In this document: one piece after another, positions 11,092-39,744 of the stretch | Position numbering within the stretch: position 1 is the stretch's first letter | How the letters are laid out: every line of letters begins with the position of its first letter | Made by a program: the position numbers and the translations under genes | Notes under the pieces: generated by a model | The model's database searches: none | What the model saw: the letters and a program-made list of their open reading frames with translations, nothing else | Told to the model about the DNA's origin: nothing | Source of the DNA: an uncultured Victivallaceae bacterium | GTDB lineage: Bacteria; Verrucomicrobiota; Lentisphaeria; Victivallales; GWF2-50-93 | Direction of reading: 5' to 3' | NCBI GenBank assembly: GCA_964636325.1 | Contig: CAZWRV010000010.1 | Location: 29,072 to 93,071 of the forward strand | DNA length: 64,000 bases

Positions 11092-11100
11092 TCTTTCCAG

Positions 11101-12706: not shown

Positions 12707-12755
12707 GATGCTTTGAAATAAGACCATTAATTCACCTCAGATATTAAGGAGATCA

Positions 12756-13886
12756 ATGAGCTCAAAGGAAATTATTCCCTGCAGGCCAAAGTGGAAAGGC
12801 ACGATGACCGACCGCGAACGCTACAACCGCCAGATGCACTACAAGGCGGTCGACCGCTGCTTCAACCGCGAATTCGGCTACTGGCAGGAGAACTACTCCG
12901 AGTGGAAGGCCTTTGTCGAAAACGGCATTACCAGTGAATGGGAGGCCAATATATTCTTCAACTTTGACAAGGACTGCTCCGTTGGATTCCCATGGCTTCT
13001 CCCAGCCTTCGAACGGAAAGTGATCTCCGAGACCGAGAACTCGCAGACCATCGTGGACTACAACGGCCTCATCTGCGAAATCCCCAAGGACGGACACAGC
13101 ACAATCCCGCACTACATCGGCTCGTCCATACAGACGCCGGACGATTGGAAGAAGGTCAAGAAGGAACACCTTAATCCCGCCAATCCCAAAAGGAATACGG
13201 ACGTCGCCGCGCTCAAGAAACAGCATCCCGACGACCGCGACTACCCGTTGGGCGTCTGGTGCGGCTCCATGATCGGCCAGGTAAGGGATCTTCTCACCGT
13301 CGAAGGTCTCGCCTACGCCATCTACGACTATCCGGACATGGTCGAGGACATGATCGAAAACCAGTGCGTCCTGGCCGAGAACTACCTCGACGAAGTCCTT
13401 CCTCACTTCAAGTTCGACTACGCCGCCGGCTGGGAGGACATCTGCTTCAAGAACGGCCCCCTCGTGTCCGTCGAGTTCTTCAAGGAGAAGGTCGCGCCCC
13501 GCTACAAGCGCATAAACAGCAAGCTCAAGAAATACGGCATCGACATCTGGTGGATAGACTGCGACGGGGATGTGCGGCCGATCATGCCGACCTTCCTCGA
13601 ATGCGGCATCAACTGCCTATTTCCGTTCGAGGTTCTATGCTGCTGCCACCCCGGCGAACTCATGAAGGAATACGGCAAGGATCTGAGGATCATGGGGGGA
13701 GTCGACAAGACTCAGCTCGCGAAAGGCCCCAAGGCCATCACAGAATACCTCAAATCCCTCGAGCCCTGGGTCGAGCGCGGCGGCTTCATCCCCTTCTGCG
13801 ACCACAGGTGCCCGCCCGACGTCAGCTGGGAGAACTACATCTTCTACCTCGACCTCAAGGAGAAGATGTTCGGCATGAAGGCATGA
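12756..13886 (+). CDS. Uroporphyrinogen decarboxylase (URO-D) family protein, non-haem context
   Basis: 376 aa. The C-terminal half (IWWIDCDGDVRPIMPTFLECGINCLFPFE ... GGFIPFCDH) matches the URO-D / MtaA-like TIM-barrel pattern. Confidence 0.75.
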   Translation: MSSKEIIPCRPKWKGTMTDRERYNRQMHYKAVDRCFNREFGYWQENYSEWKAFVENGITSEWEANIFFNFDKDCSVGFPWLLPAFERKVISETENSQTIVDYNGLICEIPKDGHSTIPHYIGSSIQTPDDWKKVKKEHLNPANPKRNTDVAALKKQHPDDRDYPLGVWCGSMIGQVRDLLTVEGLAYAIYDYPDMVEDMIENQCVLAENYLDEVLPHFKFDYAAGWEDICFKNGPLVSVEFFKEKVAPRYKRINSKLKKYGIDIWWIDCDGDVRPIMPTFLECGINCLFPFEVLCCCHPGELMKEYGKDLRIMGGVDKTQLAKGPKAITEYLKSLEPWVERGGFIPFCDHRCPPDVSWENYIFYLDLKEKMFGMKA

Positions 13887-14380
13887 CGGCCGCCGACGGA
13901 AATGGCATGGACTCTCCCAGCTCCGGAGCGCTGGAATACAAGTCCGTCAGGAAATCCGGCTGCATGATCGCCTTTCTGATCTGCATGTCCGCCGCATCCC
14001 TGATACTGGGAGCGACCTTCTTCACCATCGGGCTTGTTTTCCCAGGAGTTTCCGGCTCCTTATCGTTAGGATTTTGCGTAAAACTGTTTCTTGCGTCATT
14101 GCTGATCGTTTCGGCGTTCGGCCTACTTACCATGCGCCGCTGGGGACGCAGGCTTGCCATTGCTGCGGCAGCCGGACAACTCGTCATGTGCATCGTCCAT
14201 ATCCTCTATTCGATCCATCAAATCGCTGCGGTTAGGGATTCCTTTTTCGAGATTCTCGGGAAAACCGGATTCTATGCCGTGTCCGCCTTAAGCATTTTCA
14301 TTGTCGCGCTGGGGCTTGTCTATCCGGCCATCCTGTTGATCCTGCTGGGAAAGAGTGAAGCAAAAACGTTTTTTAAGTGA
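13883..14380 (+). CDS. Small polytopic membrane protein, hypothetical
   Basis: ATG 13883 overlaps the preceding TGA (ATGA). About 4 hydrophobic helices. The upstream part of the track ORF 13259-14380 is an out-of-frame overlap with the URO-D gene. Confidence 0.6.
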   Translation: MTAADGNGMDSPSSGALEYKSVRKSGCMIAFLICMSAASLILGATFFTIGLVFPGVSGSLSLGFCVKLFLASLLIVSAFGLLTMRRWGRRLAIAAAAGQLVMCIVHILYSIHQIAAVRDSFFEILGKTGFYAVSALSIFIVALGLVYPAILLILLGKSEAKTFFK

Positions 14381-14407
14381 TATGATCAATAATGGAAGGG
14401 CTTGAAA

Positions 14408-16849
14408 ATGAAAACGTTCCATATTTTGCTCGCCGAGAACAGGAATCCTTTTTTCCGCGTAGCAATCCGCCCGAACGCCGCACCGGCCGAGGAGTTCGCA
14501 GCCGAAGAACTGAGACGCCATCTTCTGGACATGGCCGGCGTCGGACCGCAGCTGCGGAACCGCGAGAAGAGTCGCAGCACCTCAGACGTCAGCAGAATAT
14601 TCGTCAATGACGCTACCGCGGCCGAGGCGACGGGCATCGACGTCGCCGGCTTGAAGCTGGCTCCGGAAGCATACCATCTGCGCACATGCGGGAAGGACGT
14701 CCACATCCTCGGCGGAGGGCCGCGGGGAGTTCTGTATGGCGCCTATGATCTCCTTGAAACGCTCGGCTGCCGCTGGTTCACGCCTGAGATATCGAGGATC
14801 CCCCGTCCCGGCCGAATCGAACTGCCGCCGCTCCGCCGCACGGAGAAACCGTGCTTCGAGTTCCGCGACATGTTCGCATGGGAATGCTCCGATCCTCTTT
14901 GGTGGGCCCGCAATCGCATGAACGGCTGGTATACCCCGGTTCCGGAATACATGGGCGGACACGTCAACTATGGCCTTTTCGTCCACACGTTCGACAGGCT
15001 CGTTCCGCCGGAAGAGTTCTTCGATTCGCATCCGGAATATTTCAGCGAGGTCGAAGGTGTGCGCCGCCGGAATGGAAGCCAGCTCTGCCTGAGCAATCCG
15101 GAAGTGCTGCGAATTCTCACCGACCGCCTCCTCAAGCGCATGCGCGAGAATCCCCGCGACCGGATCTGGTCGGTCTCCCAGAACGACTGGACCGGTTACT
15201 GTGAATGCCCGAAGTGCAAGGCCGTCGCTGACGAAGAGGGTTCCCAGGCAGGTCCGATTCTGCGCTTCGTCAACGCCGTGGCAACGGAAACCGTCAAGGA
15301 ATTTCCCGAAAACCTCATAGACACCCTCGCCTACTGGTACAGCCTGGACGCTCCCCGCAAGGCCGTCCCGCACCCGAATGTCCGAGTCCGGCTCTGCTCG
15401 ATCAGATGCTGTCAGGTGCACGGCTACGGAACTTGCGACCATAAGGAGAGCGCTCGCTTCATGAAGGCGCTCAAAGGCTGGTCCCGCATCACGAAGCAGA
15501 TGTATATCTGGCACTATGCCACCAACTTCGCCAATTATCCTCTGCCGATGCCGGACTACGACGAACTCCACGCGAACATCAACCTCTACAGGAAGAAAGG
15601 CGTCTACGGAGTATTCATACAGGGAATGGGCGAGGAGGGCGGCGGCGCCGAAACCATGGCCCTTCGCGGCTATGTCGTCAGCCGTCTCCTCTGGAACCCC
15701 GACCGTCCCGTCTGGCCGATCATAGACGAATTTCTACCCGCATACTACGGCAGAGCCGCCAATTCAGTGCGCGGCTACCTTGACGCTTTTCATACCCGCC
15801 TACGGAAGGACAATTCGTTGCATTACACCCTTTACGACCCGCCGACGCATCCGCTATTCGACGAATCAACCCTTCGCAAGGCCGAGAGCTCCCTTATGAA
15901 AGGCGAGAAGCTCGTGAAGGACAAGGAACGCCTCCGCGTCCGGCTCCTGCTCCACGGCATAAGCTACGCCAGATTGGGCCGCGTCAGCGGAAGATTCTCG
16001 ATCCGGAACGGCAAGTACCACGGAGGCGCGACGCAAAAGGACCGCGCCCTCCTTGAATCCATGATCGAAGACTGGCGCACAGCCGGAATCCAGCGGATCC
16101 GCGAAGGAGCGGCTTTCGACACTACGGCAGGGATTCTACGCAACCGCATCGGAATTCATAAGGTGGAATGGCTCTCCGGCGGCGATAATTCAATCGCAGT
16201 CGTCCCGGCATTGGGCGGACGGATCATAGAATGGAACGCCCACGGCCGTCAATGGATATCACCCGCCGATCCCGATAACGCATGGAACCCATACCCCATG
16301 AACGAAGGATTCCTGGACTACGTCATACAAGGCCAGTATGGCTTCCACGGATGGTCCGAAGAGTTCAAATGCGAAAGACGCGGAAATACCATTATCCTTC
16401 GCGCTGAAATTCTAGGCTCCCTCGAGCTTCTCCGGAAGCTCTCCTTCCAAAACTGCGAACTTCGCGTAAATACGCAGCTTACAAACCGTGGAACTGCGCC
16501 GGCCTCCTGCTCGCTTGGACCGAGCCTCCACCTTTTCGTCCCTGGAGATTTCATTCTCAGCTTCAAGACGGAGGAAAGTTCGCAGTCTCTTGACGGGAAA
16601 AAGATGCCCGACGGATTTGCCAACCCAATCATCCTCGAAGGAGACAAGCTTCCTCTCGGATCCTGGCAGGTCGAGACCGATGGATTCATCGTCAGACACG
16701 GTTTCACAGGCCGGATCGAACGCGCGATCCCCGGCCGCATCAAGGACAAGGGAATTGTCGCACTGGATCTCCGCACTCCTTCTACCGATATCGGACCGAA
16801 TGCTTCACTCAATTTTGAGCAAAATATTACAATCGAGTCCAAAAGGTGA
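14408..16849 (+). CDS. DUF4838 domain protein (glycoside-hydrolase-like)
   Basis: The N-terminal GVLYGAYDLLETLGCRWF, the CECPKC Cys cluster and the overall length fit DUF4838. ATG 14408 is preferred; TTG 14402 is the alternative. Confidence 0.8.
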   Translation: MKTFHILLAENRNPFFRVAIRPNAAPAEEFAAEELRRHLLDMAGVGPQLRNREKSRSTSDVSRIFVNDATAAEATGIDVAGLKLAPEAYHLRTCGKDVHILGGGPRGVLYGAYDLLETLGCRWFTPEISRIPRPGRIELPPLRRTEKPCFEFRDMFAWECSDPLWWARNRMNGWYTPVPEYMGGHVNYGLFVHTFDRLVPPEEFFDSHPEYFSEVEGVRRRNGSQLCLSNPEVLRILTDRLLKRMRENPRDRIWSVSQNDWTGYCECPKCKAVADEEGSQAGPILRFVNAVATETVKEFPENLIDTLAYWYSLDAPRKAVPHPNVRVRLCSIRCCQVHGYGTCDHKESARFMKALKGWSRITKQMYIWHYATNFANYPLPMPDYDELHANINLYRKKGVYGVFIQGMGEEGGGAETMALRGYVVSRLLWNPDRPVWPIIDEFLPAYYGRAANSVRGYLDAFHTRLRKDNSLHYTLYDPPTHPLFDESTLRKAESSLMKGEKLVKDKERLRVRLLLHGISYARLGRVSGRFSIRNGKYHGGATQKDRALLESMIEDWRTAGIQRIREGAAFDTTAGILRNRIGIHKVEWLSGGDNSIAVVPALGGRIIEWNAHGRQWISPADPDNAWNPYPMNEGFLDYVIQGQYGFHGWSEEFKCERRGNTIILRAEILGSLELLRKLSFQNCELRVNTQLTNRGTAPASCSLGPSLHLFVPGDFILSFKTEESSQSLDGKKMPDGFANPIILEGDKLPLGSWQVETDGFIVRHGFTGRIERAIPGRIKDKGIVALDLRTPSTDIGPNASLNFEQNITIESKR

Positions 16850-27367: not shown

Positions 27368-27895
27368 ATGGACATGGATATTATGCGCAAAATAATTTCC
27401 CTTCTGAAGCGCCTCTCCGTGGCCGTGATCCTGCTGGTGGGCATGGCCGCCGTAGTATTCGGCATATTCAACATCCGCGCGGCCTGGGTCTGCAGCCTGT
27501 GGCCCACGGTCAAAGGCAGGATCGTCGACTCAACGCCCGCGCAGACGCGCAAGCCGGACGGCAGCAGCATTTATGTGGCGAACGTCGTCTACGAATACAC
27601 GGTCAAGGACAGCACATACTACTCCTCCAACATCTCGAACTTCGGCTACGACCTCTTTTATCCGTCGCTGTCATACTTCACCGGACAGATCAGCGACATC
27701 AAGCCGGTACTGAACAAGTATCCGGTCGACAGCGAAGTCACCGTCTATTACAATCCTAAGGACAACGACGTCTCGGTCATAGACCCCAGCCTCAAGCTGC
27801 CCGTCTTCCTTCCGCTGATTTTCGGGATACTGCTCCTTCTGATCGATTTCCACCTCGTCTACATACTCGGCATATTATCCACGAGGAAGAACTGA
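27368..27895 (+). CDS. DUF3592 membrane protein
   Basis: N-terminal TM, WPTVKGRIV...YEYTV.....Y beta-rich core, and C-terminal TM. This is the typical DUF3592 layout. Confidence 0.7.
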   Translation: MDMDIMRKIISLLKRLSVAVILLVGMAAVVFGIFNIRAAWVCSLWPTVKGRIVDSTPAQTRKPDGSSIYVANVVYEYTVKDSTYYSSNISNFGYDLFYPSLSYFTGQISDIKPVLNKYPVDSEVTVYYNPKDNDVSVIDPSLKLPVFLPLIFGILLLLIDFHLVYILGILSTRKN

Positions 27896-27953
27896 CTGGA
27901 TCGCGGAAGACATACTCATTTGGCGTCAAAATGTTAATTTTTCAGCCTAAAGG

Positions 27954-27994
27954 GTAAATATTCAGTGGAAGGGCTTAGCTCGCTGAATATTTGC
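27954..27994. repeat. Rep-C hairpin, copy 2
   Basis: GTAAATATTCAGTGGAAGGGCTTAGCTCGCTGAATATTTGC. Ends 9 nt before ATG 28004. Confidence 0.8.
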
Positions 27995-28003
27995 AGGTAT
28001 GAC

Positions 28004-28399
28004 ATGCGCTGCCCGGCATGCAGAATTGAAATGGTCGTGATAGAGCACCAGGACGTCGAGATAGACGTCTGCCACAGGTGCGGGGGAGTCTGGCTCGACG
28101 AGGGCGAGCTTGAAATATTGCTTGGCGCCGGGCAAGATGCCTCACCCTTCCACGATGCGTTGGATTCAAGCTCGGCAGGTGAGCCCGGAACAAGAAGATG
28201 CCCCGTCTGCTCGAAGAAGATGGGCAGGATTGCGATCAGGCTGGATACGCCGGTCGAAATCGACAAATGCCCAAGGAAGCACGGGCTCTGGTTCGACGAG
28301 GGGGAACTGCAGCTTGTGGCCGCTGCAAGCTTTTCAGGGGGTGCCGTAGCCGAATTTCTGAACAATACGTTGGAATGCAGATTGAAGAAAAAGCAATAG
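28004..28399 (+). CDS. Tandem zf-TFIIB-type zinc-ribbon protein
   Basis: Two copies of C-P-x-C ... C-x-x-C-x-G-x-W-(L/F)-D-x-G-E-L (MRCPAC..CHRCGGVWLDEGELE and RRCPVC..CPRKHGLWFDEGELQ). Start moved from 27965, which lies inside the Rep-C hairpin. Confidence 0.75.
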   Translation: MRCPACRIEMVVIEHQDVEIDVCHRCGGVWLDEGELEILLGAGQDASPFHDALDSSSAGEPGTRRCPVCSKKMGRIAIRLDTPVEIDKCPRKHGLWFDEGELQLVAAASFSGGAVAEFLNNTLECRLKKKQ

Positions 28400-28415
28400 C
28401 TCAAGGAGGTACTTC

Positions 28416-29000
28416 ATGACGGCAGGAGCCGGAATCGCAGGGGTCGGTCTCGTCCTCATAATCATCACGGTCGTAGCAGTGCTGGTGGTCTTATGGGCCA
28501 TCCTCACATACAACACTCTGATAGGCATGAGGAACATGGTCAGGAACGCCTGGGCCCAGATAGACGTCCAGCTCAAGCGCCGCCACGACCTCATACCCAA
28601 CCTCGTCGAGACCGTCAAGGGCTACGCAAAGCACGAGAGCGGAACCTTCGAGGCAGTAGTCAAGGCCAGAACCGCCGCCATGCAGGCGAACGGCGTCAGC
28701 GCGACCGCAAAGGCGGAAGGCGAACTCTCCGGAGTCCTCAGCAGGCTGATGGCTATCGCCGAGGCATACCCCGAACTCAAGGCCAACCAGAATTTCCTCA
28801 GCCTCCAGGAGGAGCTGTCGTCCACAGAGAACAAGATCGCCTTCTCCCGCCAAGCATACAACGACCAGGTCATGATCTACAACACCAAGACACAGATGAT
28901 ACCCTCCAACATAATCGCGGGCATTGGCGGCTTCACCCCGGAGGATCTCTTCGAGCTGAAGGACGAAGCCCAGCGCGAGGCGCCCCAGGTCAAGTTTTGA
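28416..29000 (+). CDS. lemA: LemA family protein
   Basis: N-terminal TM, then YNTLIGMRN.V.NAW.QIDVQLKRRHDLIPNLVETVKGYA.HE and AYPELKAN.NF..LQ.EL..TENKIA..R..YN. Confidence 0.9.
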   Translation: MTAGAGIAGVGLVLIIITVVAVLVVLWAILTYNTLIGMRNMVRNAWAQIDVQLKRRHDLIPNLVETVKGYAKHESGTFEAVVKARTAAMQANGVSATAKAEGELSGVLSRLMAIAEAYPELKANQNFLSLQEELSSTENKIAFSRQAYNDQVMIYNTKTQMIPSNIIAGIGGFTPEDLFELKDEAQREAPQVKF

Positions 29001-29336
29001 GCTTGCAGACCTGACTGACTCAAGCGGGAATGACTGATACTGATAGGAATTTTGATTTTTACCATCCAAAGTCCGCAGTGTTTTAGTGTCTTCACTATTA
29101 TGGCGGACTGGTCTCTCTTCTCGATGAAGGATATTTCCTCATATGTATCATTGAACATCGAGCATCGATTTAAACATTGAAAACTATTCCAAATTCTTGA
29201 ACGTCGGATGTTCGACCTGTCTGTCCTCCGTCGCTTTCCTTTGGAAGACGAACGAGGGTGTTGAGTGTTCGATGCTGTTTTATATGCACTTAAGAATATA
29301 AGCCTAAGGCAAAGACAGTAAGTAAAAATCTTAACC

Positions 29337-31037
29337 ATGCCCAAGAAATGGTATTTCCTCAAGGACGGCGCCGAACTTGGCCCGTTCAACAGCCAGGAGC
29401 TCATCCAGCTGGCCGAGGAGGACAAGCTCGGCCGCGACACGCCTGTAAAGCTTGACCTCGACGGTAAATGGCACAGGGCGTCCGAGCTGGAGGGGCTCTT
29501 CCCTACGGCACCCGCCCCGGCGGCAAACTCCGGCCAATCCGGCGCAGGCACAACAGGAAAGATGGTCGTCCCTTCCACACCGATCGTCTGCCCGCACTGC
29601 TGGGAGCATTTTTCCTACGAATCAATCCTCTATGTAGCCCGCCACCAGGATCTCAGGGGCGATCCCGTCATCGGCCCGGACGCCCAGAAGCGTTTCCTGC
29701 CGACGAAGTTCAACACCAAGGGCCACGCCATAGACGCCCGAGGCATGGAGTGCGAGGACATCGCCTGTCCGCACTGCCACCTCGAAATCCCGTATTCTGT
29801 CATAACGCTCGAATCTCTATACTTTTCGATCATCGGGGCGCCTTCAAGCGGCAAGTCATTTTTCCTTACAGCATTGATCGCCAAGCTCAGGGACAAGCTG
29901 CCACGCCACTTTGATTACAGCTTCACTGACGCCGACCCGGTCTTCAACGTTGTCGTCAACGACTACGTGCAGCGCCTCTTCGACAACGAATTCCCCGACA
30001 GCTTCGTCACGCTGCCGAAGACAGACCTCCGCGGCGACCTCTTCTCCAACCAGATTACGCTCAACGGCATGATCACGGACCTGCCCAAGCCATTCGTATT
30101 CAAGATCGAACCCTCGGGCACGCACGCCCTCCACGGGAAGCAGGCCGCCGGTCTTATCAGGAACCTGGTCTTCTACGACAACGCCGGCGAGCACATCCTG
30201 CCCGGGCAGGACAGCCCCAACAATCCCGCCACCAGGCACCTGGCCGAGTCCCACGGCATCATCTTCCTCTTCGATCCCGTACTCGACGCCGGAATGAGAC
30301 GCCTCTGCAGCTCCGGAGACCCGCAGCTCAAGGACGACTCCAAGCTCGTCAACCAGGCGGTACTATTCGCAGAAATGATCGGCAGGATCAGGAAGATGAC
30401 CGGCATGAGGGCCGGAGGCGCCTACAACAGCCCACTCATCATCGCCGTGTCCAAGTTCGACATATGGGAGAACCTCCTTCCCGACGACAATATCAGGGCC
30501 CTGGACCCTTGGTGCTACAACCCGCAGACAAGACGCAATGAACTCGACTATTGCGTCGTCGCCAACGTCTCATACCACCTCAGGGAGCTAATGCTGCAGA
30601 TCAAGCCCGACATCGTCGCGGCCGCCGAGGCGTTCTCGCCCAACGTCTTCTTCATCCCAGTCAGCGCCCTCGGCAGCAACTCCATTGAGAAGCAGGATGC
30701 CGCCCCCCCGGCTCCGGTGGAGGCCCCTAGAAAGACCGTCAGGCCGGGCGACGGCTCACCCTCCCTTTCACGCGCTTTCGGAACCAAGCCCGCCAACGTC
30801 AAGCCCGTGTGGTGCGAAACACCCATGCTCCTCCTCCTCGCGCTGAAAGGCTACTTCCCCTTGAACAAGTCATCACGGCACAAGGGCGCCGATCCCGAAA
30901 GCCATGAGTTCAGAAGGCATTTCGTCACATTGCGCTTCCCAAACCTCACGGAGGAAATAAAGCTGCCTTCCACATACTTCGGAACCACCGTATACCACAG
31001 AGAACTCAAAGCTTGGATCAATATCCCGGAAAACTGA
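29337..31037 (+). CDS. GYF_2 domain / CxxC..CxxC zinc ribbon / P-loop GTPase fusion, uncharacterised family (gene A of the candidate system)
   Basis: Residues 4-55 (KWYFLKDGAELGPFNSQEL...GKWHRASELEGLF) look like GYF_2. CPHC at aa 85-88 and CPHC at aa 144-147. G1 GAPSSGKS at nt 29835-29858, G3 DNAG at 30177-30188, G4 SKFD at 30450-30461, G5-like VSALG. No signal peptide or TM. Confidence 0.85.
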   Translation: MPKKWYFLKDGAELGPFNSQELIQLAEEDKLGRDTPVKLDLDGKWHRASELEGLFPTAPAPAANSGQSGAGTTGKMVVPSTPIVCPHCWEHFSYESILYVARHQDLRGDPVIGPDAQKRFLPTKFNTKGHAIDARGMECEDIACPHCHLEIPYSVITLESLYFSIIGAPSSGKSFFLTALIAKLRDKLPRHFDYSFTDADPVFNVVVNDYVQRLFDNEFPDSFVTLPKTDLRGDLFSNQITLNGMITDLPKPFVFKIEPSGTHALHGKQAAGLIRNLVFYDNAGEHILPGQDSPNNPATRHLAESHGIIFLFDPVLDAGMRRLCSSGDPQLKDDSKLVNQAVLFAEMIGRIRKMTGMRAGGAYNSPLIIAVSKFDIWENLLPDDNIRALDPWCYNPQTRRNELDYCVVANVSYHLRELMLQIKPDIVAAAEAFSPNVFFIPVSALGSNSIEKQDAAPPAPVEAPRKTVRPGDGSPSLSRAFGTKPANVKPVWCETPMLLLLALKGYFPLNKSSRHKGADPESHEFRRHFVTLRFPNLTEEIKLPSTYFGTTVYHRELKAWINIPEN

Positions 31038-31057
31038 GAATGGAGCTCTCACGGAGC

Positions 31058-31325
31058 GCTGGTAGCTTGCGCACGCCGTGCGCAAATGGCAGACTCTGCA
31101 TATTAGGAATGCCTGCGTTTCGTCCGCCTAGGCGGGTTCTGTTTTTTGCGCGCAGCGCGCGCAAACTACTTTTTGGCAAATTCTTTTGTTATATTCCACC
31201 ATCAGGAACTAAGTTTTTCCCTGCGGGAAAAAGGCACCCTTACGGCGCGCAGGTAGTTTGCGCGCAACGCGCGCAAACTACTTTTGGTAAAAACGTTTTC
31301 CAAGTCGCACCGTAAGGGACTAATA
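31058..31325 (-). repeat. Rep-E element, copy 3 (about 1.5 units, inverted relative to copy 1), filling the gap between genes A and B
   Basis: GGTAGCTTGCGCACGCCGTGCGCAAA, GTTTTTTGCGCGCAGCGCGCGCAAACTACTTTTTGGCAAATTC, TTTTTCCCTGCGGGAAAAA, the perfect hairpin GTAGTTTGCGCGCAACGCGCGCAAACTAC (about 31252-31280), and CCGTAAGGGACTAA. Matches the reverse complement of 566-788. Confidence 0.8.
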
Positions 31326-31374
31326 AAGACTAACGACCCTATACATGAGAGCCACATATCTGGAAATCTGACGC

Positions 31375-33927
31375 ATGCCCCAGGAACTCATACACACCTC
31401 GGCCCGCAAGGGCATAAAGGCCGGAAGCTGCGGATTCTGCACCGTGGCCTACACCGAAGGCATGGCCGCGAACCTGGTGTCGATTCTGGAGGCCTACAGC
31501 GTCTATATGCCGCTTTTCGATGTCGCCGGCGACAAGGCGCTCCTCAACCCAACGTCGTTCATCCACTACAGATGCTCGGTGGGGGCCCAGAGCCTCAGCA
31601 TCATAAGCCGCATCTCCTTCGCAGGACTCGACTACACGAACAGGTCCAACCGGGTGGCCCACCATCTCGTCCTTGACCAGGAGGACCTCCCCGCGGCAGG
31701 TCCGGCCGCATTCATACGGATTTTCGACCAGAAGTCCTACTTCGAGCGGAGCTGGGACAGGGATCCCGAACTGCTTCCGCACGGCCTCCTGAACGGCAGG
31801 GTGGCGGAGGTGAAGGAGGAGGCAATTTCCCGCTCGGGCAGGGCCTCCGCCTGGGATGAGTTCGCGGGCGATGCGGGCTGGGCGGGCGCACTCGCCGAGT
31901 CCTTCCTTGCCGACCGCACCAGGCCCTCGTTCATCGTGTTCGATCCGGAGCTGCACCGGAGCTGCGACCTCCTCCTGCTCGTCGAGGAGGCCCTGTCCTT
32001 CCTGCCGCCCCAAGAGCGCTGGCAGGTCACCTTCAACACGCACTTCTCGGCGCTCCCCCAGGGAACAAGATGCGTGTGGCGCTGCTGCACAAGGAACTCC
32101 GACGCCCTCAAGGAGGCGCGCCGCACGCCTGGCGCACTCGTCGTGGACCTTTCCGACCGCACCAGGAAGGCTGACGGCGGCACCCTTGTCCAGGCCGCAA
32201 GAACAGGGGAAATGCCGCGGCAGGAAGCGGCCGCAACCCACGTCACGCACAAGGATCTCACTCAGCTCGCGAAGGAAATCCAGAAGCTTTCCGAAAAAGA
32301 ACCGAAGGCGCGTCATGATTCCATAACGCCGGATTCCAGCATCGAAATGGATTCCGGAAGCAAAGCTGGAAGTTCTGCAAAAAGCACCGTAGGCGCCCAC
32401 TCCGGCGGAAAATCCCGGCACCGGTCCGCCGGACAGCCAGCAGGCGACCAGCGCAAATCCCATGCGGCCGCAATCTCGGCATGCGTCCTGATCCTCGCGG
32501 CAATCGCATTCTGCCTCTGGATACTCAACGAGCACAGGAAGATGCAGACGGCCCTAGCCGGAACCGGAAAAGACACTCTAGGGGAAAAACACACTACCGA
32601 ATTGCGGGAAGCCATCGAAATGCCCAAGCCAAAACTTGCCGAGCCGCCCAAGGAAGCGCCATCTAATATTGTAAAGCCTCATGGGCAAGAAAAGCCCGAA
32701 CCCCCTCCGCAGCACCCCCCGAAAGAAATAATCGAACCAGTCGTCACCGCAAAGCCCGCCAAGACTGTTGAAACGCCCAGTCATCCAGCGTCGGAAAAAC
32801 CTGAAGCTGGCGAAACACCACCAACTCCTCCTTCAAAACAACCTCCCAAACCGGCCGCAAGGCCCGGTGAAGGAATCAAAGACTTCTGGTTCCGCTGGCA
32901 GGAAGGAATCCGCGACATCGGCGACAAGGCTGAAATGCAAATCCCCGGCGTCCCGGCCGACGCCAAGATCTCAATCAAGCTGAAGGACAAATGCACAAAC
33001 GGCGCGGAAATAAAAGACAACGGCAGCCCCAGGCCCGTATTGTCCAACATCCTCGGCATGGACAAGGAGACCAGGATTCCTTTCAGAAAGGACAGCGCAT
33101 CATTCAGAATATCAAGAGACGGAATACTCACAGTCGAACTGACCGACGACGCCAGGAAGTTCAACGAACCGCAGACTCTCCTGTCGGAAAACATCAAGGA
33201 AATCGTCGCCGGCAGCATAAGCTGCTGCACCGAATACAAACCTCCGCTTCCGGACGGAACCGGCACATTCGTCAACCTGGCCACTTCAGACAGGCTCTCG
33301 AAACAGCCTGAGGAAAACTTCGACGACATCGATCTGCTCAAGTTCGAATTCAAGCCCGGCAAGATCGACAAGGCGGTCCTCGACAGAACGGACGGCTTCG
33401 CCTTCAGGCTCAGACTCGGTAGCACCGTCTTCCCCAGGACAACACTGTCCCTTCAGGATATTCACGCCCTGCTGCCCCCACCGGACACAGCCCCTCCGGG
33501 AAAGGAAATCCCCGAATTCAAGGATATTTCAAGCTCCAGGAAGTCATTGATCTCGAAGGCCGCGGAAATCTACACGGAACTTAACATCCCCGAGGCCGCA
33601 CGAAAATCTTTCCTGATCCCGGAGGAGACTGTAGGGCAGCTTGTCGAAAAAAAGCTGGAGGACACCGATAAAATGCCCGATAAGACAAACGGTGAAAAGG
33701 ACATAAAGAACCAGAAGATCACGTCGCTTAACAAAATCAGAAATGAGAAATGGCCGAAATACGCCGAAGCCAGGGACGAATACCTCTCCGGCAGGGCACA
33801 TTTCCTCAAGGCTCTCCCAGACCGTGTAAAAGACTTCCTCTCGGAGAGGCTCCCCGACTTCAGGCTCGAAATCATCGAGCGGAAAGACAAGGAGGAAATA
33901 CTCCACAAGACCGTGGTGTTCGAATGA
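31375..33927 (+). CDS. Bitopic membrane protein: GAP1-N-like N-terminal domain, one TM, Pro-rich linker, C-terminal ectodomain (gene B)
   Basis: The N-terminus MPQELIHTSARKGIKAGSCGFCTVAYTEGM follows the (Q/E)L-x-(H/Y)TS...G...G..GF......T.G pattern I recall for GTPase-associated protein 1 N-domains. TM at nt ~32464-32529. Pro-rich tract at nt 32622-32868. Confidence 0.8.
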   Translation: MPQELIHTSARKGIKAGSCGFCTVAYTEGMAANLVSILEAYSVYMPLFDVAGDKALLNPTSFIHYRCSVGAQSLSIISRISFAGLDYTNRSNRVAHHLVLDQEDLPAAGPAAFIRIFDQKSYFERSWDRDPELLPHGLLNGRVAEVKEEAISRSGRASAWDEFAGDAGWAGALAESFLADRTRPSFIVFDPELHRSCDLLLLVEEALSFLPPQERWQVTFNTHFSALPQGTRCVWRCCTRNSDALKEARRTPGALVVDLSDRTRKADGGTLVQAARTGEMPRQEAAATHVTHKDLTQLAKEIQKLSEKEPKARHDSITPDSSIEMDSGSKAGSSAKSTVGAHSGGKSRHRSAGQPAGDQRKSHAAAISACVLILAAIAFCLWILNEHRKMQTALAGTGKDTLGEKHTTELREAIEMPKPKLAEPPKEAPSNIVKPHGQEKPEPPPQHPPKEIIEPVVTAKPAKTVETPSHPASEKPEAGETPPTPPSKQPPKPAARPGEGIKDFWFRWQEGIRDIGDKAEMQIPGVPADAKISIKLKDKCTNGAEIKDNGSPRPVLSNILGMDKETRIPFRKDSASFRISRDGILTVELTDDARKFNEPQTLLSENIKEIVAGSISCCTEYKPPLPDGTGTFVNLATSDRLSKQPEENFDDIDLLKFEFKPGKIDKAVLDRTDGFAFRLRLGSTVFPRTTLSLQDIHALLPPPDTAPPGKEIPEFKDISSSRKSLISKAAEIYTELNIPEAARKSFLIPEETVGQLVEKKLEDTDKMPDKTNGEKDIKNQKITSLNKIRNEKWPKYAEARDEYLSGRAHFLKALPDRVKDFLSERLPDFRLEIIERKDKEEILHKTVVFE

Positions 33928-35051
33928 GATTTATGATCAAGCAGGCTTTTTTTTGGGGAACCGCCGCCGTCCTTCTAACGGCGGCGCCGCCGGTGCGCTG
34001 CGCGGAGGACGCCCCCGCCCCTGCCGCTCCCATGGAGGCGGCCCAGGAAACACCCGCCCCGGAAGCAGCCACATCATTCTGGGTTCTCTACAGAAGCGCG
34101 ATTTCAAAGGACAAGAAGTCTTACCGGATCCCCTTGGGCAAGGCCCGGCCCGGCGCAGCGATCGACGTCGTCATGGATATCCCGGACAGCAGCAAGGGGT
34201 TGGTCGGCCGCCCCGACAAGGAGTCCGTTGTCATATACAGCCTTTCAGGATATGACGAGTTAAGGGCCCCGCAGAAAAAGCCAAGGTTCACCATCAGATG
34301 CGGCGAACGGCAGATAATTATCGAGCGCACCGGAGAGCCCAAGTCGTTGGCGCCCTCTCCCGAACTTGCGGACATCACGCATTTCATCGTCGACGGCGTC
34401 ACATACCCCGCCAGCTTCGACGGCAAGCCTTTCAGCGAGGCGGAAGCCGCATGCGCCAGTTCCTTGTCCTCGAAGAAGCTCAACCTTGTCATCCGATACG
34501 AGTTTACGCCCGCCGACAGGATCGCCGGAGTTAACAACCCCGAAAAGTTCGACTTTCATCTGACGAACAGGTTCGACAGGGTTCTCTGCAAGCAGACGCA
34601 TGCCGGGGCGGACTCCGTCTCCTTCACCTGCGATTCCAAGCAGTTCCGCTACATCGAAGAGGCAAAACCGATCATCCAGGAGCTCGACAAGGAATTGGAC
34701 GAGCTCAGGGCAAAGATCACCTATGAGGCTGGAGACTCCAAGGAGATATCCAGGCTGCTCGATTCCCCAGCCGAACTCAAGGCGTATGCGGCGAGGCTCA
34801 AGGGAAAAAAGAACCCCGACTCAAACCAGTATCTCAAAGACCTGATCGACGAATACTGCGCAAAACTCGCCGCCTCCCAGGACAAGGTTGCGGACAGGCT
34901 CGGCGAAAACAACCAGATCGGCAGTCTCGCCCAGGCTTTGAAAAAAGATGTTGAAGATATAAGATTGCAGATCATCAGGAAGTCGGACGGAAAAATCATG
35001 AAGACCGTGGGCGTCCGCGTCGACGCCGCCAATGAACGGCCAGGGAAATGA
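33924..35051 (+). CDS. Secreted protein, paralogous to the gene B ectodomain (gene C)
   Basis: ATG 33924 overlaps the gene B stop (ATGA). Signal-peptide-like MRFMIKQAFFWGTAAVLLTAAPPVRCAED. Shares KF(D/E)F...D(R/K)(V/A)L and the tail D(I/F)RL(Q/E)II..K...KTV with gene B. Confidence 0.75.
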   Translation: MRFMIKQAFFWGTAAVLLTAAPPVRCAEDAPAPAAPMEAAQETPAPEAATSFWVLYRSAISKDKKSYRIPLGKARPGAAIDVVMDIPDSSKGLVGRPDKESVVIYSLSGYDELRAPQKKPRFTIRCGERQIIIERTGEPKSLAPSPELADITHFIVDGVTYPASFDGKPFSEAEAACASSLSSKKLNLVIRYEFTPADRIAGVNNPEKFDFHLTNRFDRVLCKQTHAGADSVSFTCDSKQFRYIEEAKPIIQELDKELDELRAKITYEAGDSKEISRLLDSPAELKAYAARLKGKKNPDSNQYLKDLIDEYCAKLAASQDKVADRLGENNQIGSLAQALKKDVEDIRLQIIRKSDGKIMKTVGVRVDAANERPGK

Positions 35052-38000
35052 GCCAGATGAAAGAAATCGTCGCCGAAATCCTCAAGTTCATAGGCGCTTC
35101 CGTCCAGACGGACACCAAGGAGATGCGCTCTGCCGCAGCCGGCTTCGCGAAGGCCTGCGAGGATGTCAATTCCCGCCTGGCGAAATCCGCGGAACTTCTG
35201 CGGAAGGACGAAAGACAGGAGGCCGTGGACCTCGCCGAGGCCGATCCGCCCCTCGCCGCAACCTTCGAACTTCTGGACTCAGTCCCTAGGGCGACATGGC
35301 TCGACCTCTGCAGGCTCTACGGCTGGCCCCTGCCTCCGGAACTTCACCGTGAATTGATGGAGACCGTGAAGGCTGCGGTCGCCAGGCACAGGCTGCTCAA
35401 ACCGCTCGAGGACGAATACCGCAGGGCGATCCACACCGGAACACTGCAGGACAAGGTCGCCGTACTCAGGAAGCTGCGCAAGATCGACCCCGCCGACAAA
35501 GGCTGGGAACAGTCCCAGAAGGACTTCGAAAAACTATGGATCGCCGAGCTTGTCGCGGCCGCGAAGTCCGCTATCGCATCTAACGACGAGGACTCCCTCA
35601 AAAGGATTGATTCAATACTGTCATCCCCGGAGTGGCTGCTTAGGCCCGACCCCGGGGATTCCCAGGACATCGACTCCAAGCTGAAGGAGTTCAGGATCGG
35701 CCACCTCAAGGAAAAGGCCGGAGTAATCATCAAGGACATCGCCTCCGCATACGGCCTGTTCGACCTGGACCGCCTCAACAACGCCCTCTCCAGGTGGGAC
35801 CTCATTGCCGAAGACAGAGAATTCGCTCCCTCCGAAACAGACCTCCAGCAGGTCAGGGAGGCCAGGGAATGGGCGGCCATAAAGAACAAGGAGGAGTCAT
35901 CCAAGAGGGAATTCCAAAATCTTCTGGAATCTATCCAGCAGATGTTCGACACCGACGAACAAGAGTTCCACAGGATCGACAACGCATACAGCAAGCTGCG
36001 CCAGTTCGAACGCGAAATTCCTGACATCATCGAAACCAGATACCGCAACGCGAAGGCGGAACACGAAGTCTCCATGGCCCGCGCCTTCAAGATCAGGCTT
36101 GCGGTCTTCGCAGCCTTGACAATCGCCGCCGTAGCCGCCGCGGTGTTCCTTGTCAACCAGAGGATTCGGCACAACAGGCACGCTGAATGGTCCAGGCAGA
36201 TCGGCAGCGCGGTAGAAGCCGGAAAACTCGACGAGGCGCTCAAGCTCTTCGACTCCATGAACTCCTCTTTCCCGAACATGGCGTCCGACCCGAAATTTGT
36301 CTCCCTCAGGAAAAGCTTAGACGGTCTCCTCGTCAAGCGGGATGCCGACCGGGCCCGCCTCAAGATCCTGCGGGGCGAACTTGAAAAGGCCGCCGCGGAC
36401 GGATTCCAATCAGACATCCCCGTGGAGGAGAAGATCCGCGAGGCAGAGCCGCTCGCCGACGCACCCGATGATACGCTAGCGTTGAAGAGGATCAAGGACG
36501 CTTGGCAGGAAAACCTCGCCGCCAGGCAGAGGCAGCGCGAAACCGAATTCCTTAAAAAGGTGGAGGCGCTCGAAGCGGTCTACGAACAGGCCGCCGCCAC
36601 CGACGCCAAGGCCGACCCCGCGGCATTCTCCTCCCTCATGAAAAAATACGAGAAGGAGGCCGACGCCATGGCGGAGTATTCCACAATCGCCAAGGACGTC
36701 TACGAGCCGAAGGCGGCGATGATGAAAAAGCGGCTCCAAACCCTTGTCAAAATATTCCAGGATGCCATGAAGGAACGCAAGGACTACGAAGCCGATCTCA
36801 AGCAGATCCACTCCGACATCAGGACCATCGCCGACTTCAAGGCATCCCTCGAAAGGTTCTCCGAAAGATACCCCGAATACCCCAACAGCGCCGACATCAG
36901 CCAGGTCCTCGGCTATATGAAGCACTACCTTGCCGCGGCGGCGCTCAAGGAGTTCATGCCGGCCACCGAAATGAAGCAGGACAAGATGGGCGCATTCAGC
37001 GACCTCGCCAAAATGATCGACTCGGCGTCCCCGTGGAGCCCCGACTTCCCCGACTTCCTGAAATATTACTGCCGCCTCCAGGACAGCGCCCCAGGATTCA
37101 AGGCCGCCTTCGAGGAACTTGCAAGAGCCCCGCTCATCAACTACTATTCCATCATGGCCAGGAGCCAGGACGGCGGCGCAGTCGAGATGATTTCCGAGGA
37201 GGAGCCGAAAATCAAGCCCAGCGGCACCGCCGACGGCAAGCCCATGCGCGAAATCTCAGTCCTCAGAATCATGAGCAGTAGCGACATCTCAGGCGTCTAC
37301 TGGTATCTCCAGGAAAACCCCTCCGGCAGATGGGACGCCAGATGCGGCGGCAAGATACTTCTGAAAAACCTCGAGATCGAAGACCTGCCGCACATCACCG
37401 CGAAAATACAGTCCTACACAAAACTCTCCGCCCTCTTCAAGGAGGCCGCGGCCGCAGGCCCGCTCCGCTTCGAAACTCAGGTCCTCGACATCATCGACGA
37501 AATCAAGGTCTCCACGGGCAACCCTTACAGGAGGCTCATCCTCCTGAAACACGTCATGGGCCAGGCAGAAAAAATATCGTGGTCTCTCTCCCCGGCCTTC
37601 GGAAGGCGCCTAGCCGAAATCCAGGACTTCATGGCCTCGTTCGGCGCCGGCTACGACTATTTCAACATGCCTCAGAAGGACGTTGCAAAAGTTACGCAGT
37701 TCTTGAAGGATCTTCCGGACATGAGGCCCGAAGCGGAGGCTTCCCTTGTCGGACGCGACGCAATCCTCGCCGCCCTGGACAGGTCCGTCGACTTCATGGG
37801 GATAGTCAAGGCCGACGGCGACGAGAAAAGCGCCGCCGCCAGGAAGATGAAATTCTCCGGGGAGCTCTGGGCCCTCAGGAAGGACAGCTCCGGCAAGTTC
37901 CGCTTCCACATCGTCGGAAACGTCAAGGACGGCGCCTCCATGCTCGACCCCGCCGAAACAAAATCGCTGTCCGACTGCGAACCCCTCTTCGCCCCGACCG

Positions 38001-38122
38001 ACGGCAAAAGGACCCTCGGCCTCGCCGCCGAGCTCCAGAGGCAGGCGGCCAAGACCGGCGCCGCAATCGCATGGCCGCAATGCTGGCCGGTCAACGGCAT
38101 CCCCGCAGAACCAAAGCGTTAG
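35048..38122 (+). CDS. 1024-aa bitopic, largely alpha-helical protein (gene D), no recognisable domain
   Basis: ATG 35048 overlaps the gene C stop (ATGA). Single TM at nt ~36097-36156 (LAVFAALTIAAVAAAVFLV) separates a ~350-aa N-terminal part from a ~650-aa C-terminal part. Confidence 0.8.
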   Translation: MSQMKEIVAEILKFIGASVQTDTKEMRSAAAGFAKACEDVNSRLAKSAELLRKDERQEAVDLAEADPPLAATFELLDSVPRATWLDLCRLYGWPLPPELHRELMETVKAAVARHRLLKPLEDEYRRAIHTGTLQDKVAVLRKLRKIDPADKGWEQSQKDFEKLWIAELVAAAKSAIASNDEDSLKRIDSILSSPEWLLRPDPGDSQDIDSKLKEFRIGHLKEKAGVIIKDIASAYGLFDLDRLNNALSRWDLIAEDREFAPSETDLQQVREAREWAAIKNKEESSKREFQNLLESIQQMFDTDEQEFHRIDNAYSKLRQFEREIPDIIETRYRNAKAEHEVSMARAFKIRLAVFAALTIAAVAAAVFLVNQRIRHNRHAEWSRQIGSAVEAGKLDEALKLFDSMNSSFPNMASDPKFVSLRKSLDGLLVKRDADRARLKILRGELEKAAADGFQSDIPVEEKIREAEPLADAPDDTLALKRIKDAWQENLAARQRQRETEFLKKVEALEAVYEQAAATDAKADPAAFSSLMKKYEKEADAMAEYSTIAKDVYEPKAAMMKKRLQTLVKIFQDAMKERKDYEADLKQIHSDIRTIADFKASLERFSERYPEYPNSADISQVLGYMKHYLAAAALKEFMPATEMKQDKMGAFSDLAKMIDSASPWSPDFPDFLKYYCRLQDSAPGFKAAFEELARAPLINYYSIMARSQDGGAVEMISEEEPKIKPSGTADGKPMREISVLRIMSSSDISGVYWYLQENPSGRWDARCGGKILLKNLEIEDLPHITAKIQSYTKLSALFKEAAAAGPLRFETQVLDIIDEIKVSTGNPYRRLILLKHVMGQAEKISWSLSPAFGRRLAEIQDFMASFGAGYDYFNMPQKDVAKVTQFLKDLPDMRPEAEASLVGRDAILAALDRSVDFMGIVKADGDEKSAAARKMKFSGELWALRKDSSGKFRFHIVGNVKDGASMLDPAETKSLSDCEPLFAPTDGKRTLGLAAELQRQAAKTGAAIAWPQCWPVNGIPAEPKR

Positions 38123-38154
38123 GAGAAATCATTAGTACCGATAAACAGTCCTAA

Positions 38155-39069
38155 ATGTACTACCTCAGGGAAAACGGCAAGATACACGGGCCCTTCACCG
38201 CCGAAAGGATGAAGGAGCTGGCGGCGTCCGGAAGGATTTCGCGGCAGACAGAGGTCTCCGACGACAGGACAGTCTGGAAGCTGGCGGACTGCTACTCCGA
38301 ACTCTTTCCGGAAAAGAAGCACGCGGCCCCCCCCTCTCTTCCAAAAACTCCAAAGATTGCATCCAAGGAACCTAAGGTGGAGGAAAAAAACGCAGAACCG
38401 GAAGTCATACGCCTTGACCTGCCGGACTTCACACGCCCGGCAAGAGACGTGAAAGTCTCCCCGCCCGACCCGCCGGACATGGAACTCCCGCGAGAAAGCG
38501 CCTTCCGGAAATTGCTTTTCCTGGAAATCGCCTGGGATCCGATGGAGTCCATTCCGGAAATCTACTCCGCGCTCGGGGATAACGGCGCTTTGAAGACGGG
38601 CATTGCGTTGATTGTCCTATCGGCACTATCAGTATTCGCCGCCCTTGAACTTGCGGCCCGCAGCGGCAACCTCGGAATCAACGCAGGCCATTTCGGAATG
38701 GCCTTCTTCTCCTTCATCTCCCTCGGAGGACTTCTCGTATCCTGCTTCATCGTCCGGAAATTCCTGGGGGAAAAAGGCGAAGGCGGCTCCGGCGGGGACT
38801 GCCTAACTGCAGGCTCGGGCGCAATCCTGCTCTCGATCGCACTCCTGATCTCGGCGCTGACGGCCTGGGACGGCGCGTTCTTCCAGCGGTTCGGCGCGAT
38901 CATTTCCGCCGGCGCCGTCCTTTATGCGGCATGCTCAATGGTTTTCTGCATCTTCACCGGATGCACAAGAATCTCACGCATACCGCGCTCCGTCGGACCA
39001 GTCGCCGTCCCCCTCATAATCGCCGCCACCGCGATCACCGCAGGCCTCGCCGCAAAATTCCTCCTCTGA
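38155..39069 (+). CDS. GYF_2 domain protein with C-terminal multi-pass (about 5 TM) membrane domain (gene E)
   Basis: MYYLRENGKIHGPFTAERMKELAASGRISRQTEVSDDRTVWKLADCYSELF looks like GYF_2. It is followed by a Pro/Lys-rich linker, then hydrophobic segments from nt ~38590 to the end (Yip1-like by eye, unverified). Confidence 0.8.
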   Translation: MYYLRENGKIHGPFTAERMKELAASGRISRQTEVSDDRTVWKLADCYSELFPEKKHAAPPSLPKTPKIASKEPKVEEKNAEPEVIRLDLPDFTRPARDVKVSPPDPPDMELPRESAFRKLLFLEIAWDPMESIPEIYSALGDNGALKTGIALIVLSALSVFAALELAARSGNLGINAGHFGMAFFSFISLGGLLVSCFIVRKFLGEKGEGGSGGDCLTAGSGAILLSIALLISALTAWDGAFFQRFGAIISAGAVLYAACSMVFCIFTGCTRISRIPRSVGPVAVPLIIAATAITAGLAAKFLL

Positions 39070-39520
39070 AATTCGAACATATTAATCGCGATCTTTCTCG
39101 CTATCTTCGTCGCCTTCCGGAGGGTTGAATTCTATCCTGTGCCGCTTTCACTTTTAACTCGGCGTATTGGGCAAAACACGGCACAGGAGTGCCGTAAAAC
39201 AAAGCGCAACAGGAGTTGCGCACTCCAAGGTCAGGCGATACCTGACAAAAACTGAGGATATATTCAACAATGTCGTAACATGAATTCATATATAGATATG
39301 CGCGGATATACTTTGTCTAAACTCGAGTGCGCAAGCTTGCTTGCGTCTTATTTTCGACAAGCTTGCTTGTCAAGCATCGGAGAGAGCTCCGCTGTAAAAA
39401 GCTGAAGCACCCGCCTTCGCATGGCTACGGCACGGCACAGAGGTTCAGCACACTCCAAAGTTCATCGTCGGCAAAACTGACGTCGTCGGTGTTGTTCTCA
39501 GTGTGCAGCATCGAAAAACG

Positions 39521-39561
39521 GTATGAATCCAGCAAACTACGCCATTTTGCTGAATTCATAC
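39521..39561. repeat. Rep-B hairpin, copy 2
   Basis: GTATGAATCCAGCAAACTACGCCATTTTGCTGAATTCATAC. Confidence 0.8.
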
Positions 39562-39744
39562 TCCCGCGCGGTACGATGACCGTCATACGCGCCGGCGTCT
39601 GGCACCCATGCCCCGTTCACCCCGAACGGCAAGCCGCTCAACACCCTCGTCGTGCTGCCGGAACGCACATAGGCCAATGACTGTGTCGTCAAGGATCACG
39701 AAGTTTATCGTTCAAAAAAGCAGCCCAGCCAGATTAAGAACTTT

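Follow-up and report, generated by a model that had tools for sequence, protein, structure and literature searches.

What kind of system is encoded by five adjacent genes on contig CAZWRV010000010.1 of an uncultured Victivallaceae bacterium, and what might it do for the cell? The window, i.e., the whole stretch of DNA that was analysed, is 64,000 nucleotides (nt) long, all coordinates are window positions, and the genes, here called A to E, all lie on the + strand (Table 1). Gene A encodes a GTPase with a GYF_2 domain and a zinc ribbon, B a membrane-anchored GAP1 protein, C a secreted or periplasmic protein, D a long bitopic protein and E a GYF protein with several transmembrane (TM) helices. 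A first-pass annotation, made from the letters alone, observed this arrangement correctly and guessed its family rightly as a membrane-embedded relative of the GTPase/GAP1 systems of the Aravind group, but overstated the case in holding that it fits no characterised system. The class was defined computationally, with a proposed role in conflict, by Kaur, Burroughs, Iyer and Aravind (eLife 2020, PMC7159879), a study that the annotation had dated to around 2021. From its sequences, the locus is assigned to the GAP1-N2-type DO-GTPase systems and, within these, to the 'GYF + TM-rich' subtype of the Planctomycetota–Verrucomicrobiota–Chlamydiota (PVC) bacteria. Of the conflict systems predicted in bacteria, those of the GAP1/DO-GTPase type rank with the largest and are known from computation; the locus, one of many of its kind, provides a compact test case with five genes, no accessory enzymes and intact catalytic GTPase motifs.

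GAP1-N2-type DO-GTPase systems have been reported in planctomycetes and verrucomicrobiae, where the GAP1 protein is often fused to C-terminal TM segments and some planctomycete systems are coupled to a GYF-domain protein fused to trypsin or to a TM-rich region (PMC7159879). In the same study, the GTPase was described with N-terminal zinc ribbons, usually two, a rapidly evolving fibronectin type III (FNIII)-repeat protein was expected, and double paralogous GTPases were found in 38% of systems and were not required; one supplementary file of the paper mentions neither GYF nor GAP1-N2. The Pfam families that stem from it are DO-GTPase2 (PF19993), GAP1-N2 (PF20013) and GAP1-M (PF20014), and because the Pfam matches and the published description agree, the locus belongs to this described, purely computational class. 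The N-terminus of B, which had been likened to GAP1-N, carries GAP1-N2 and GAP1-M, both above the Pfam cut-offs, and 113 of the 117 detected B homologues have the two domains together. The single TM helix of B, the Pro-rich tract after it and the ectodomain were also found as first described. Death-like adaptors and enzymatic effectors, which the annotation had taken for usual partners, are mainly a feature of the GAP1-N1 subtype.

Gene A is predicted to encode an active TRAFAC GTPase, since its P-loop, YDNAGE, xKxD motif and zinc-ribbon Cys residues are fully conserved. An alignment of 55 GTPases from related loci shows 100% conservation of the four zinc-ribbon Cys (in two knuckles that both read CPHC, residues 85-88 and 144-147), the G, K and S of the P-loop, YDNAGE, K373, D375 and G446; a plausible switch-I pair, K228 and T229, is conserved to at least 90%. 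The earlier reading of A as GYF_2 plus zinc ribbon plus a G1-G5 GTPase is therefore well founded, with motifs invariant or nearly so among the relatives, and the Walker A Lys of GAPSSGKS is indeed K173. DO-GTPase2 is the top GTPase family for all ten GTPases scanned from related loci, four of which score above the cut-off, among them the Paludisphaera orthologue, 39% identical to A; A is placed in the DO-GTPase2 clade, with the family-defining Walker-B Glu in YDNAGE. The septin-, GIMAP- or dynamin-like profiles that had been considered for A were not recovered, as Pfam and NCBIfam gave only DO-GTPase2/1 and noise-level MMR_HSR1 and Obg, and a PDB sequence search with A returned zero relatives. 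The GYF domain of A, a fusion present in 16 of 50 related loci, sits where the GTPases of some relatives have a second zinc ribbon or an FHA domain. The last 60-70 residues of A (approximately amino acids (aa) 500-566; …FVTLRFPNLTEEIKLPSTYFGTTVYH…WINIPEN) are shared by the long Lentisphaerota GTPases inspected; the planctomycete GTPases, which are short (415-450 aa), lack them, and this points to an extra small domain.

Compared with the published GAP1-N2 DO-GTPase systems, the locus shares a TRAFAC GTPase that has the Walker-B Glu and starts with a zinc ribbon region, a directly downstream gene for a GAP1 protein (N2 plus M) with a C-terminal TM fusion, a GYF domain fused to a TM-rich region (E), the PVC distribution, a membrane-proximal design, and a constant core combined with rapidly varying non-enzymatic parts. 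It differs in having one GTPase and not two (no locus in the table of related loci has a second GTPase gene beside the first either), in carrying GYF on the GTPase as well while E has one GYF and not a pair, and in showing one four-Cys ribbon where two are usual. Moreover, it has no GAP1-C and no detectable FNIII-repeat protein, it includes a constant D family of about 1,000 aa (no Pfam match) and an extra ectodomain paralogue, C, and its relatives carry a MotA/ExbB-type trio of genes. NCBIfam gave nothing meaningful for A to E.

The co-occurrence of A to E was followed by a locus scan (one genome per species, a trimmed five-sequence alignment and an iterated profile per domain), which returned 60 loci, given L-numbers below. 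Most come from Lentisphaerota/Victivallales, whose metagenome-assembled genomes (MAGs) are the closest relatives (at most 54% identity), and from Planctomycetota, with single or few loci labelled Kiritimatiellota, Opitutales and Verrucomicrobiales. The GTPase is directly upstream of GAP1-N2 in 50/52 loci, the D family is downstream of GAP1-N2 in 41/43 and adjacent to it (gap < 150 nt) in 34, and a GYF protein follows D in 24 of the 36 loci with room for one. For instance, the order A-B-C-D-E is repeated in L003, with identities of 55, 54 (N-terminal), 29, 38 and, for the E orthologue, 38%, and L002 has A-B-C-D up to the contig end, with an A orthologue 55% identical. Paludisphaera borealis has GTPase-GAP1-D-like-GYF/TM, and then a GYF protein and a trypsin on the other strand. 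This same gene order in dozens of genomes, with clustering far beyond chance, bears out the co-occurrence of A to E across PVC genomes and indicates a genuine conserved operon. The gene coordinates and common orientation given by the annotation were reproduced by a six-frame listing of open reading frames (ORFs) and by direct inspection, and so were the ATGA stop/start overlaps at B/C and C/D and the 32-nt gap between D and E.

Where no GYF protein follows D (12 loci), GAP1 is mostly short (300-340 aa, no TM). Ten loci form such a sub-variant (L011, L012, L016, L019, L020, L024, L032, L033, L034, L038), with a short GAP1 that lacks a TM, D kept, no GYF-TM gene, and a GTPase enlarged to 525-810 aa that has an N-terminal FHA domain, with or without GYF, in the three scanned (L012, L024, L032). 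Genomes can hold several copies of the system, because L052 contains two GAP1-N2/D systems in tandem (2-5165 and 8622-16498) with a MotA-like trio between them, and L014 and L021, which belong to one MAG, have a GAP1-N2 gene each.

Among four Thermoguttaceae loci, identity is 90-93% in both the GTPase core and the GAP1 module, 81-89% in the D cytoplasmic domain, 70-80% in the E GYF domain, 58-61% in the D periplasmic part, 56-58% in the E TM region, 37-49% in the B cytoplasmic linker and 27-41% in the B ectodomain. The extracytoplasmic domain of GAP1 is the hypervariable element, because identity falls so steeply there, and it takes the fast-evolving role in the 'constant core plus rapidly varying non-enzymatic sensor' design of PMC7159879.

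Gene C repeats this domain. The annotation called C a paralogue of the B ectodomain. Pairwise BLASTP does not show this (E = 0.18, not significant), but the profile-profile comparison by hhalign that supersedes it does (probability 95.7%, E = 1.1e-8, 228 columns); on that match the claim was right, and C is an old duplicate. C has a hydrophobic N-terminus, and its homologues have a clear signal peptide or lipobox. It has no Pfam match. Among the related loci its orthologues are confined to L002, L003 and L030, and a database search with the C-family alignment gave three proteins. In other loci the gene between B and D is a copy of the locus's own B ectodomain, as in L007 (66% over 250 aa, E = 3e-96) and L025 (36% over 417 aa, E = 2e-65). 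In L015 (12656-18468), three tandem GAP1-ectodomain paralogues with 28-58% identity lie between GAP1 and D, each with its own N-terminal TM anchor and one with an internal duplication, an arrangement that resembles a cassette-style build-up of variable domains. The pattern indicates that ectodomains were duplicated independently across loci into separate secreted or anchored genes.

D had been left without any family, and a word-indexed search that found D alone made it seem an orphan, a view overturned by a full HMMER scan with 1,588 cluster representatives at E <= 1e-3 (1,148 at E <= 1e-10), nearly all of about 1,000 aa. Since there are so many representatives and 30 members have no Pfam domain, D is a large family without a Pfam model. 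Its AlphaFold2 (AF2) model, built with 30 homologues, has a mean predicted local distance difference test (pLDDT) value of 85.9 and a long helical periplasmic region; the earlier description of a bitopic helical protein stands for the one TM and the mostly helical fold, to which two small beta-domains must be added. A Foldseek search of whole D against PDB gave generic alpha-solenoid noise (template modelling (TM) score <= 0.14) and no specific fold. E was confirmed by Pfam and hydropathy as a GYF_2 domain followed by five TM helices. The B cytoplasmic linker is the obvious candidate for a GYF ligand; it is not Pro-rich in this B, and across the B family, Pro enrichment of the linker does not follow GYF presence. 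Nothing experimental on bacterial GYF_2 was found in the literature.

A possible clue to how B might act on A comes from the predicted fold of the GAP1 module. In the AF2 model of B (83 homologues), pLDDT is about 97 over residues 1-285, and the ectodomain is beta-rich and of low confidence. GAP1-N2 is predicted in the order beta-beta-alpha-beta-beta-beta-alpha, which is the strand order of longin domains, and GAP1-M as an alpha/beta domain. The six top Foldseek matches are DENND10, folliculin/FLCN (two entries), TagF of the type VI secretion system and FNIP2 (two chains), with GATOR1, SEA-complex and sedlin chains lower in the list, every one of them a GTPase regulator of the longin or longin/DENN type. 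A longin/DENN-like fold of GAP1-N2 plus GAP1-M is a lead, not a result. Like the eukaryotic longin/DENN regulators (DENND10, FLCN-FNIP, GATOR1 Nprl2/3) and bacterial TagF, residues 1-285 of B would form a longin-order domain and then an alpha/beta domain, and the module is also genetically coupled to a P-loop GTPase; the likeness differs in being fold-level and marginal, and in that the partner GTPase A is neither Ras-like nor Rag-like. PDB matches of the B-family profile were rejected as Pro-rich linker artefacts, e.g., the SigA N-terminus. According to a 2012 paper on DENN, the DENN and d-DENN domains are known only inside the DENN module, and the longin domain derives from prokaryotic MglB-like roadblock domains; PMC7159879 does not mention longin, DENN or roadblock, and a literature search on TagF with DENN gave no relevant paper. 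If the assignment were true, PVC bacteria would hold a complete longin-DENN-type GTPase regulator outside eukaryotes.

What the system does is suggested by this combination of parts. With moderate confidence, we read the locus as a PVC system of the GAP1-N2 DO-GTPase type that acts as a membrane-embedded GTP switch, with conflict or surveillance, as proposed for the family, as its most likely role. The GAP1-N2/M module, on the cytoplasmic face of the bitopic B, is genetically locked to the intact GTPase A, and both D and the GYF-TM protein E are constant partners in the membrane. A cue from the envelope or from outside, possibly an invader, might be sensed by a variable surface made up of the periplasmic parts of B, C and D. 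From there the signal would cross the TM helices to the GAP1 module of B, which, as its longin/DENN-like fold suggests, may dock on the A GTPase and set its nucleotide state. The conserved cytoplasmic helical domain of D might serve as the scaffold of the complex, while the GYF domains on A and E could tether both to a proline-rich partner. The change in GTP state would be read out at the membrane through the multi-pass E and, in relatives, perhaps also through a MotA/ExbB-type motor. A conflict role is favoured because of hypervariability, ectodomain duplication and multi-copy loci; an envelope role is favoured by the motor link, the chromosomal housekeeping context and the lack of effectors.

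Several results weigh against a conflict switch of the published type. At the family level, A itself scores 24.4 bits for DO-GTPase2, its best GTPase family, under the Pfam cut-off of 27; GAP1-C has no match at E <= 1 in A to E, B continuing after GAP1-M with linker, TM and ectodomain; and fn3 has zero matches in A to E, in 30 D-family members and in the 117 B homologues. D does have its two small beta-domains, and the ectodomains of both B and C are rich in beta structure. As the annotation had noted, no nuclease, protease or TIR domain, nor any other toxic or enzymatic effector, is recognised in A to E. Searches with PADLOC-DB 2.0 gave nothing for A and E and only weak low-complexity matches for B, C and D (E >= 1e-3). 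PADLOC also gave zero matches among ten flanking proteins; the surroundings are housekeeping, with no defence-island signature. Searches of viral contigs and plasmids did not recover the clade, no mobile-element association was seen, and the literature searched yielded no paper besides PMC7159879 naming these domains and no experiment on any family member. For the mechanism, the Foldseek scores of B are marginal (E 3.6e-3 to 1.7e-2, target-normalised TM score <= 0.33), and the B-family sequence profile found no longin/DENN relative in PDB. The B-family cytoplasmic linker is Pro-enriched on average (13% vs 7%), with 5% in this B. The TM region of E-type proteins spans 1 to 8 helices between loci, so that E may be an anchor and not an effector.

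The first alternative is a PVC-specific envelope machine and not an immune system, an energised apparatus across the envelope with Tol-Pal, TonB or gliding-motor logic. In it, the GTPase and GAP1 would control the assembly or activity of an ion-driven MotA/ExbB-type motor and of the long periplasmic D, and only the half with regulatory and structural parts would be encoded in the window. This is possible, though clearly less probable than the conflict switch. Its main evidence is a trio of genes beside the operon in 16 related loci (L003 (11793-14614), L007, L008, L010, L025, L027, L028, L030, L031, L035, L046, L049, L052, L055, L057, L058); all close Lentisphaerota relatives with sufficient sequence are among them. 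The trio usually lies 3' of the GYF-TM gene, and in the planctomycete loci L052, L055 and L057 it precedes the GTPase instead. Its first member belongs to the MotA_ExbB family, has four TM helices and reached the Pfam cut-off in 4/4 tested. The other two are paralogues of each other, coiled-coil proteins with one TM helix and an Asp at its cytoplasmic edge, which is the arrangement of ExbD, TolR and MotB. In this 4-TM protein and its single-TM partners carrying Asp, the related loci resemble the MotAB, ExbBD, TolQR and ZorAB 5:2 ion-driven motors; they differ from them in having two paralogous B-type subunits with long coiled coils and in that no OmpA/MotB peptidoglycan-binding domain was detected. 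MotA, ExbB, TolQ, stator and proton are absent from the main text of PMC7159879.

An envelope function would also suit a core order kept across Lentisphaerota, Kiritimatiellota, Planctomycetota and Verrucomicrobiota, a chromosomal locus with housekeeping flanks, no PADLOC matches and absence from viral and plasmid collections, and a system with no enzymatic effector and a 1,000-aa D protein with a long helical periplasmic region. However, the 64-kb window has no homologue of the MotA/ExbB stator or of its partners, and since it has none, its system is either a motor-less version or has its motor encoded elsewhere; about 40% of the TM-type loci with room have no trio either. Moreover, the hypervariable and repeatedly duplicated B ectodomain, the tandem systems of L052 and the two GAP1-N2 contigs (L014, L021) in one MAG suit diversifying receptors better than they suit one housekeeping machine. 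The annotation had offered two roles, a defence GTP switch and an envelope-spanning signalling or motility-like machine; the computed evidence is compatible with both, and the motor trio of relatives gives unexpected support to the second.

A combination of the two is a still more tentative proposal. PVC GAP1-N2 operons might encode a GTPase-gated, ion-motor-coupled trans-envelope surveillance machine, in which the hypervariable, repeatedly duplicated ectodomains sense an external agent, the longin/DENN-like module sets the nucleotide state of the GTPase, and the output runs through the GYF protein and a MotA/ExbB-ExbD-like 5:2 motor, the window copy being motor-less or having its motor elsewhere. 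For the PVC subtype of PMC7159879, the present results add the D family as a fourth constant partner, pin the hypervariable element to the GAP1 ectodomain, and point to repeated ectodomain duplication, a longin/DENN-like GAP1 fold and a frequent MotA/ExbB link; these refinements matter for the choice between immune sensors and envelope machines as the nature of such systems.

An anti-phage sensor coupled to a motor in the manner of Zorya, in which ectodomains and a proton-driven stator sense the perturbation of the envelope by an invader and the GTPase/GAP1 pair makes the GYF-TM protein damage the membrane or arrest growth, is improbable. The hypervariable, duplicated ectodomains and the conflict role proposed for the family would agree with it, and the related-locus MotA-like proteins do match ZorA models, but weakly (12.7-24.1 bits) and only through the shared MotA/ExbB domain. 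No ZorB-type peptidoglycan-binding domain or ZorC/D-like effector was found, no defence genes lie nearby, and the window copy, without a motor, would have to be motor-less or degenerate. Finally, that the five genes are unrelated neighbours by chance or an annotation artefact, as the 337-nt A-B spacer with its terminator-like hairpins might be taken to mean, is refuted by the co-occurrence statistics (the same order in dozens of genomes from four phyla). The stop/start codon overlaps of B with C and of C with D speak against it too, as do the inserted palindromes that probably account for the spacer.

Table 1. Position of the genes, domains and non-coding elements of the locus in the window.
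Feature	Position	Strand	Description
Gene A	29337-31037	+	566 aa; GYF_2 + zinc ribbon + DO-GTPase2-clade GTPase + C-terminal extension; ORF
A GYF_2 domain	29349-29498	+	aa 5-54; Pfam PF14237, 33.4 bits (cut-off 25.8), E = 3.8e-8
A zinc ribbon, two CPxC knuckles	29589-29777	+	C85, C88, C144, C147; invariant in 55/55 relatives
A GTPase core	29814-30686	+	G1 GAPSSGKS 167-174; probable G2 T229; G3 YDNAGE 280-285; G4 SKFD 372-375; G5 SAL 443-445
Gene B	31375-33927	+	850 aa; GAP1-N2 + GAP1-M (cytoplasmic) + TM + Pro-rich linker + hypervariable ectodomain
B GAP1-N2 domain	31378-31773	+	aa 2-133; PF20013, 71.8 bits (cut-off 24)
B GAP1-M domain	31858-32154	+	aa 162-260; PF20014, 42 bits (cut-off 24)
B TM helix	32470-32526	+	aa 366-384; hydropathy 2.76; model helix 363-395
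B extracytoplasmic domain	32872-33924	+	aa ~500-850; no Pfam match; fast-evolving
Gene C	33924-35051	+	375 aa; secreted/periplasmic paralogue of B ectodomain
Gene D	35048-38122	+	1024 aa; bitopic, family without Pfam model
D cytoplasmic all-alpha domain	35048-36082	+	aa 1-345; conserved
D TM	36098-36154	+	aa 351-369; hydropathy
D two small beta-domains in the otherwise helical periplasmic region	aa ~700-777, 914-983	+	AF2
Gene E	38155-39069	+	304 aa; GYF_2 + Pro-rich linker + 5 TM
E GYF_2 domain	38158-38289	+	aa 2-45; Pfam, 33.4 bits (cut-off 25.8)
E TM region, 5 TM	38602-39048	+	aa 150-298; TM scan
Presumed promoter region, AT-rich, 5' of A	29001-29336	.	336 nt; promoter role inferred only
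A-B spacer, three REP-like GC palindromes	31038-31374	.	337 nt; unusually long
Structured non-coding stretch, E to convergent GDSL-hydrolase gene	39070-39744	.	675 nt

The A-B spacer was passed over in the first-pass annotation. Among the 50 related loci counted, GTPase and GAP1 are separated by less than 400 nt, mostly by tens of nt, and the spacer of this locus is probably long because palindromes like repetitive extragenic palindromic (REP) elements were inserted into it. The palindromes lie at 31067-31086, 31145-31169 and 31257-31281, and two of them are followed by T-runs and score as terminator-like. The family has four copies in the window, three in the spacer and one at 680-704, with the consensus TTTGCGCGCA[G/A]CGCGCGCAAACTAC and a shorter variant, and zero copies are expected by chance. 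These elements may terminate or attenuate transcription from A into B.

The other two non-coding regions described earlier were also found. The gap 5' of A is AT-rich, with a GC content of 41% vs about 57% for the window, and no sigma-70-like site scored inside it. The stretch 3' of E is rich in hairpins (RNA fold z = -6.0 vs shuffles). Rfam gave zero matches for the non-coding regions of the locus, this stretch included, and tblastn found no remnant of the MotA/ExbB trio within 39070-39744 (best E = 0.4), although this is the place that the trio takes in close relatives.

Directly 5' of A, at 27368-29000, is a co-oriented trio of genes for a DUF3592 membrane protein, a double TFIIB-type zinc-ribbon protein and LemA, which is not kept beside the GTPase system in relatives and shows no sign of membership. 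In the four closest relatives, the position directly 5' of the GYF-GTPase gene is taken by a protein of 400-420 aa with a faint squalene-hopene-cyclase-C-like (alpha/alpha toroid) match (L002 2196-3404, L003 239-1510, L006 6860-8083, L030 2058-3320), of which the window has no homologue. The upstream flank of the locus comprises secA, pyrE and the genes for the DUF3592, TFIIB-type zinc-ribbon and LemA proteins, and the downstream flank the convergent GDSL hydrolase gene and rlmN.

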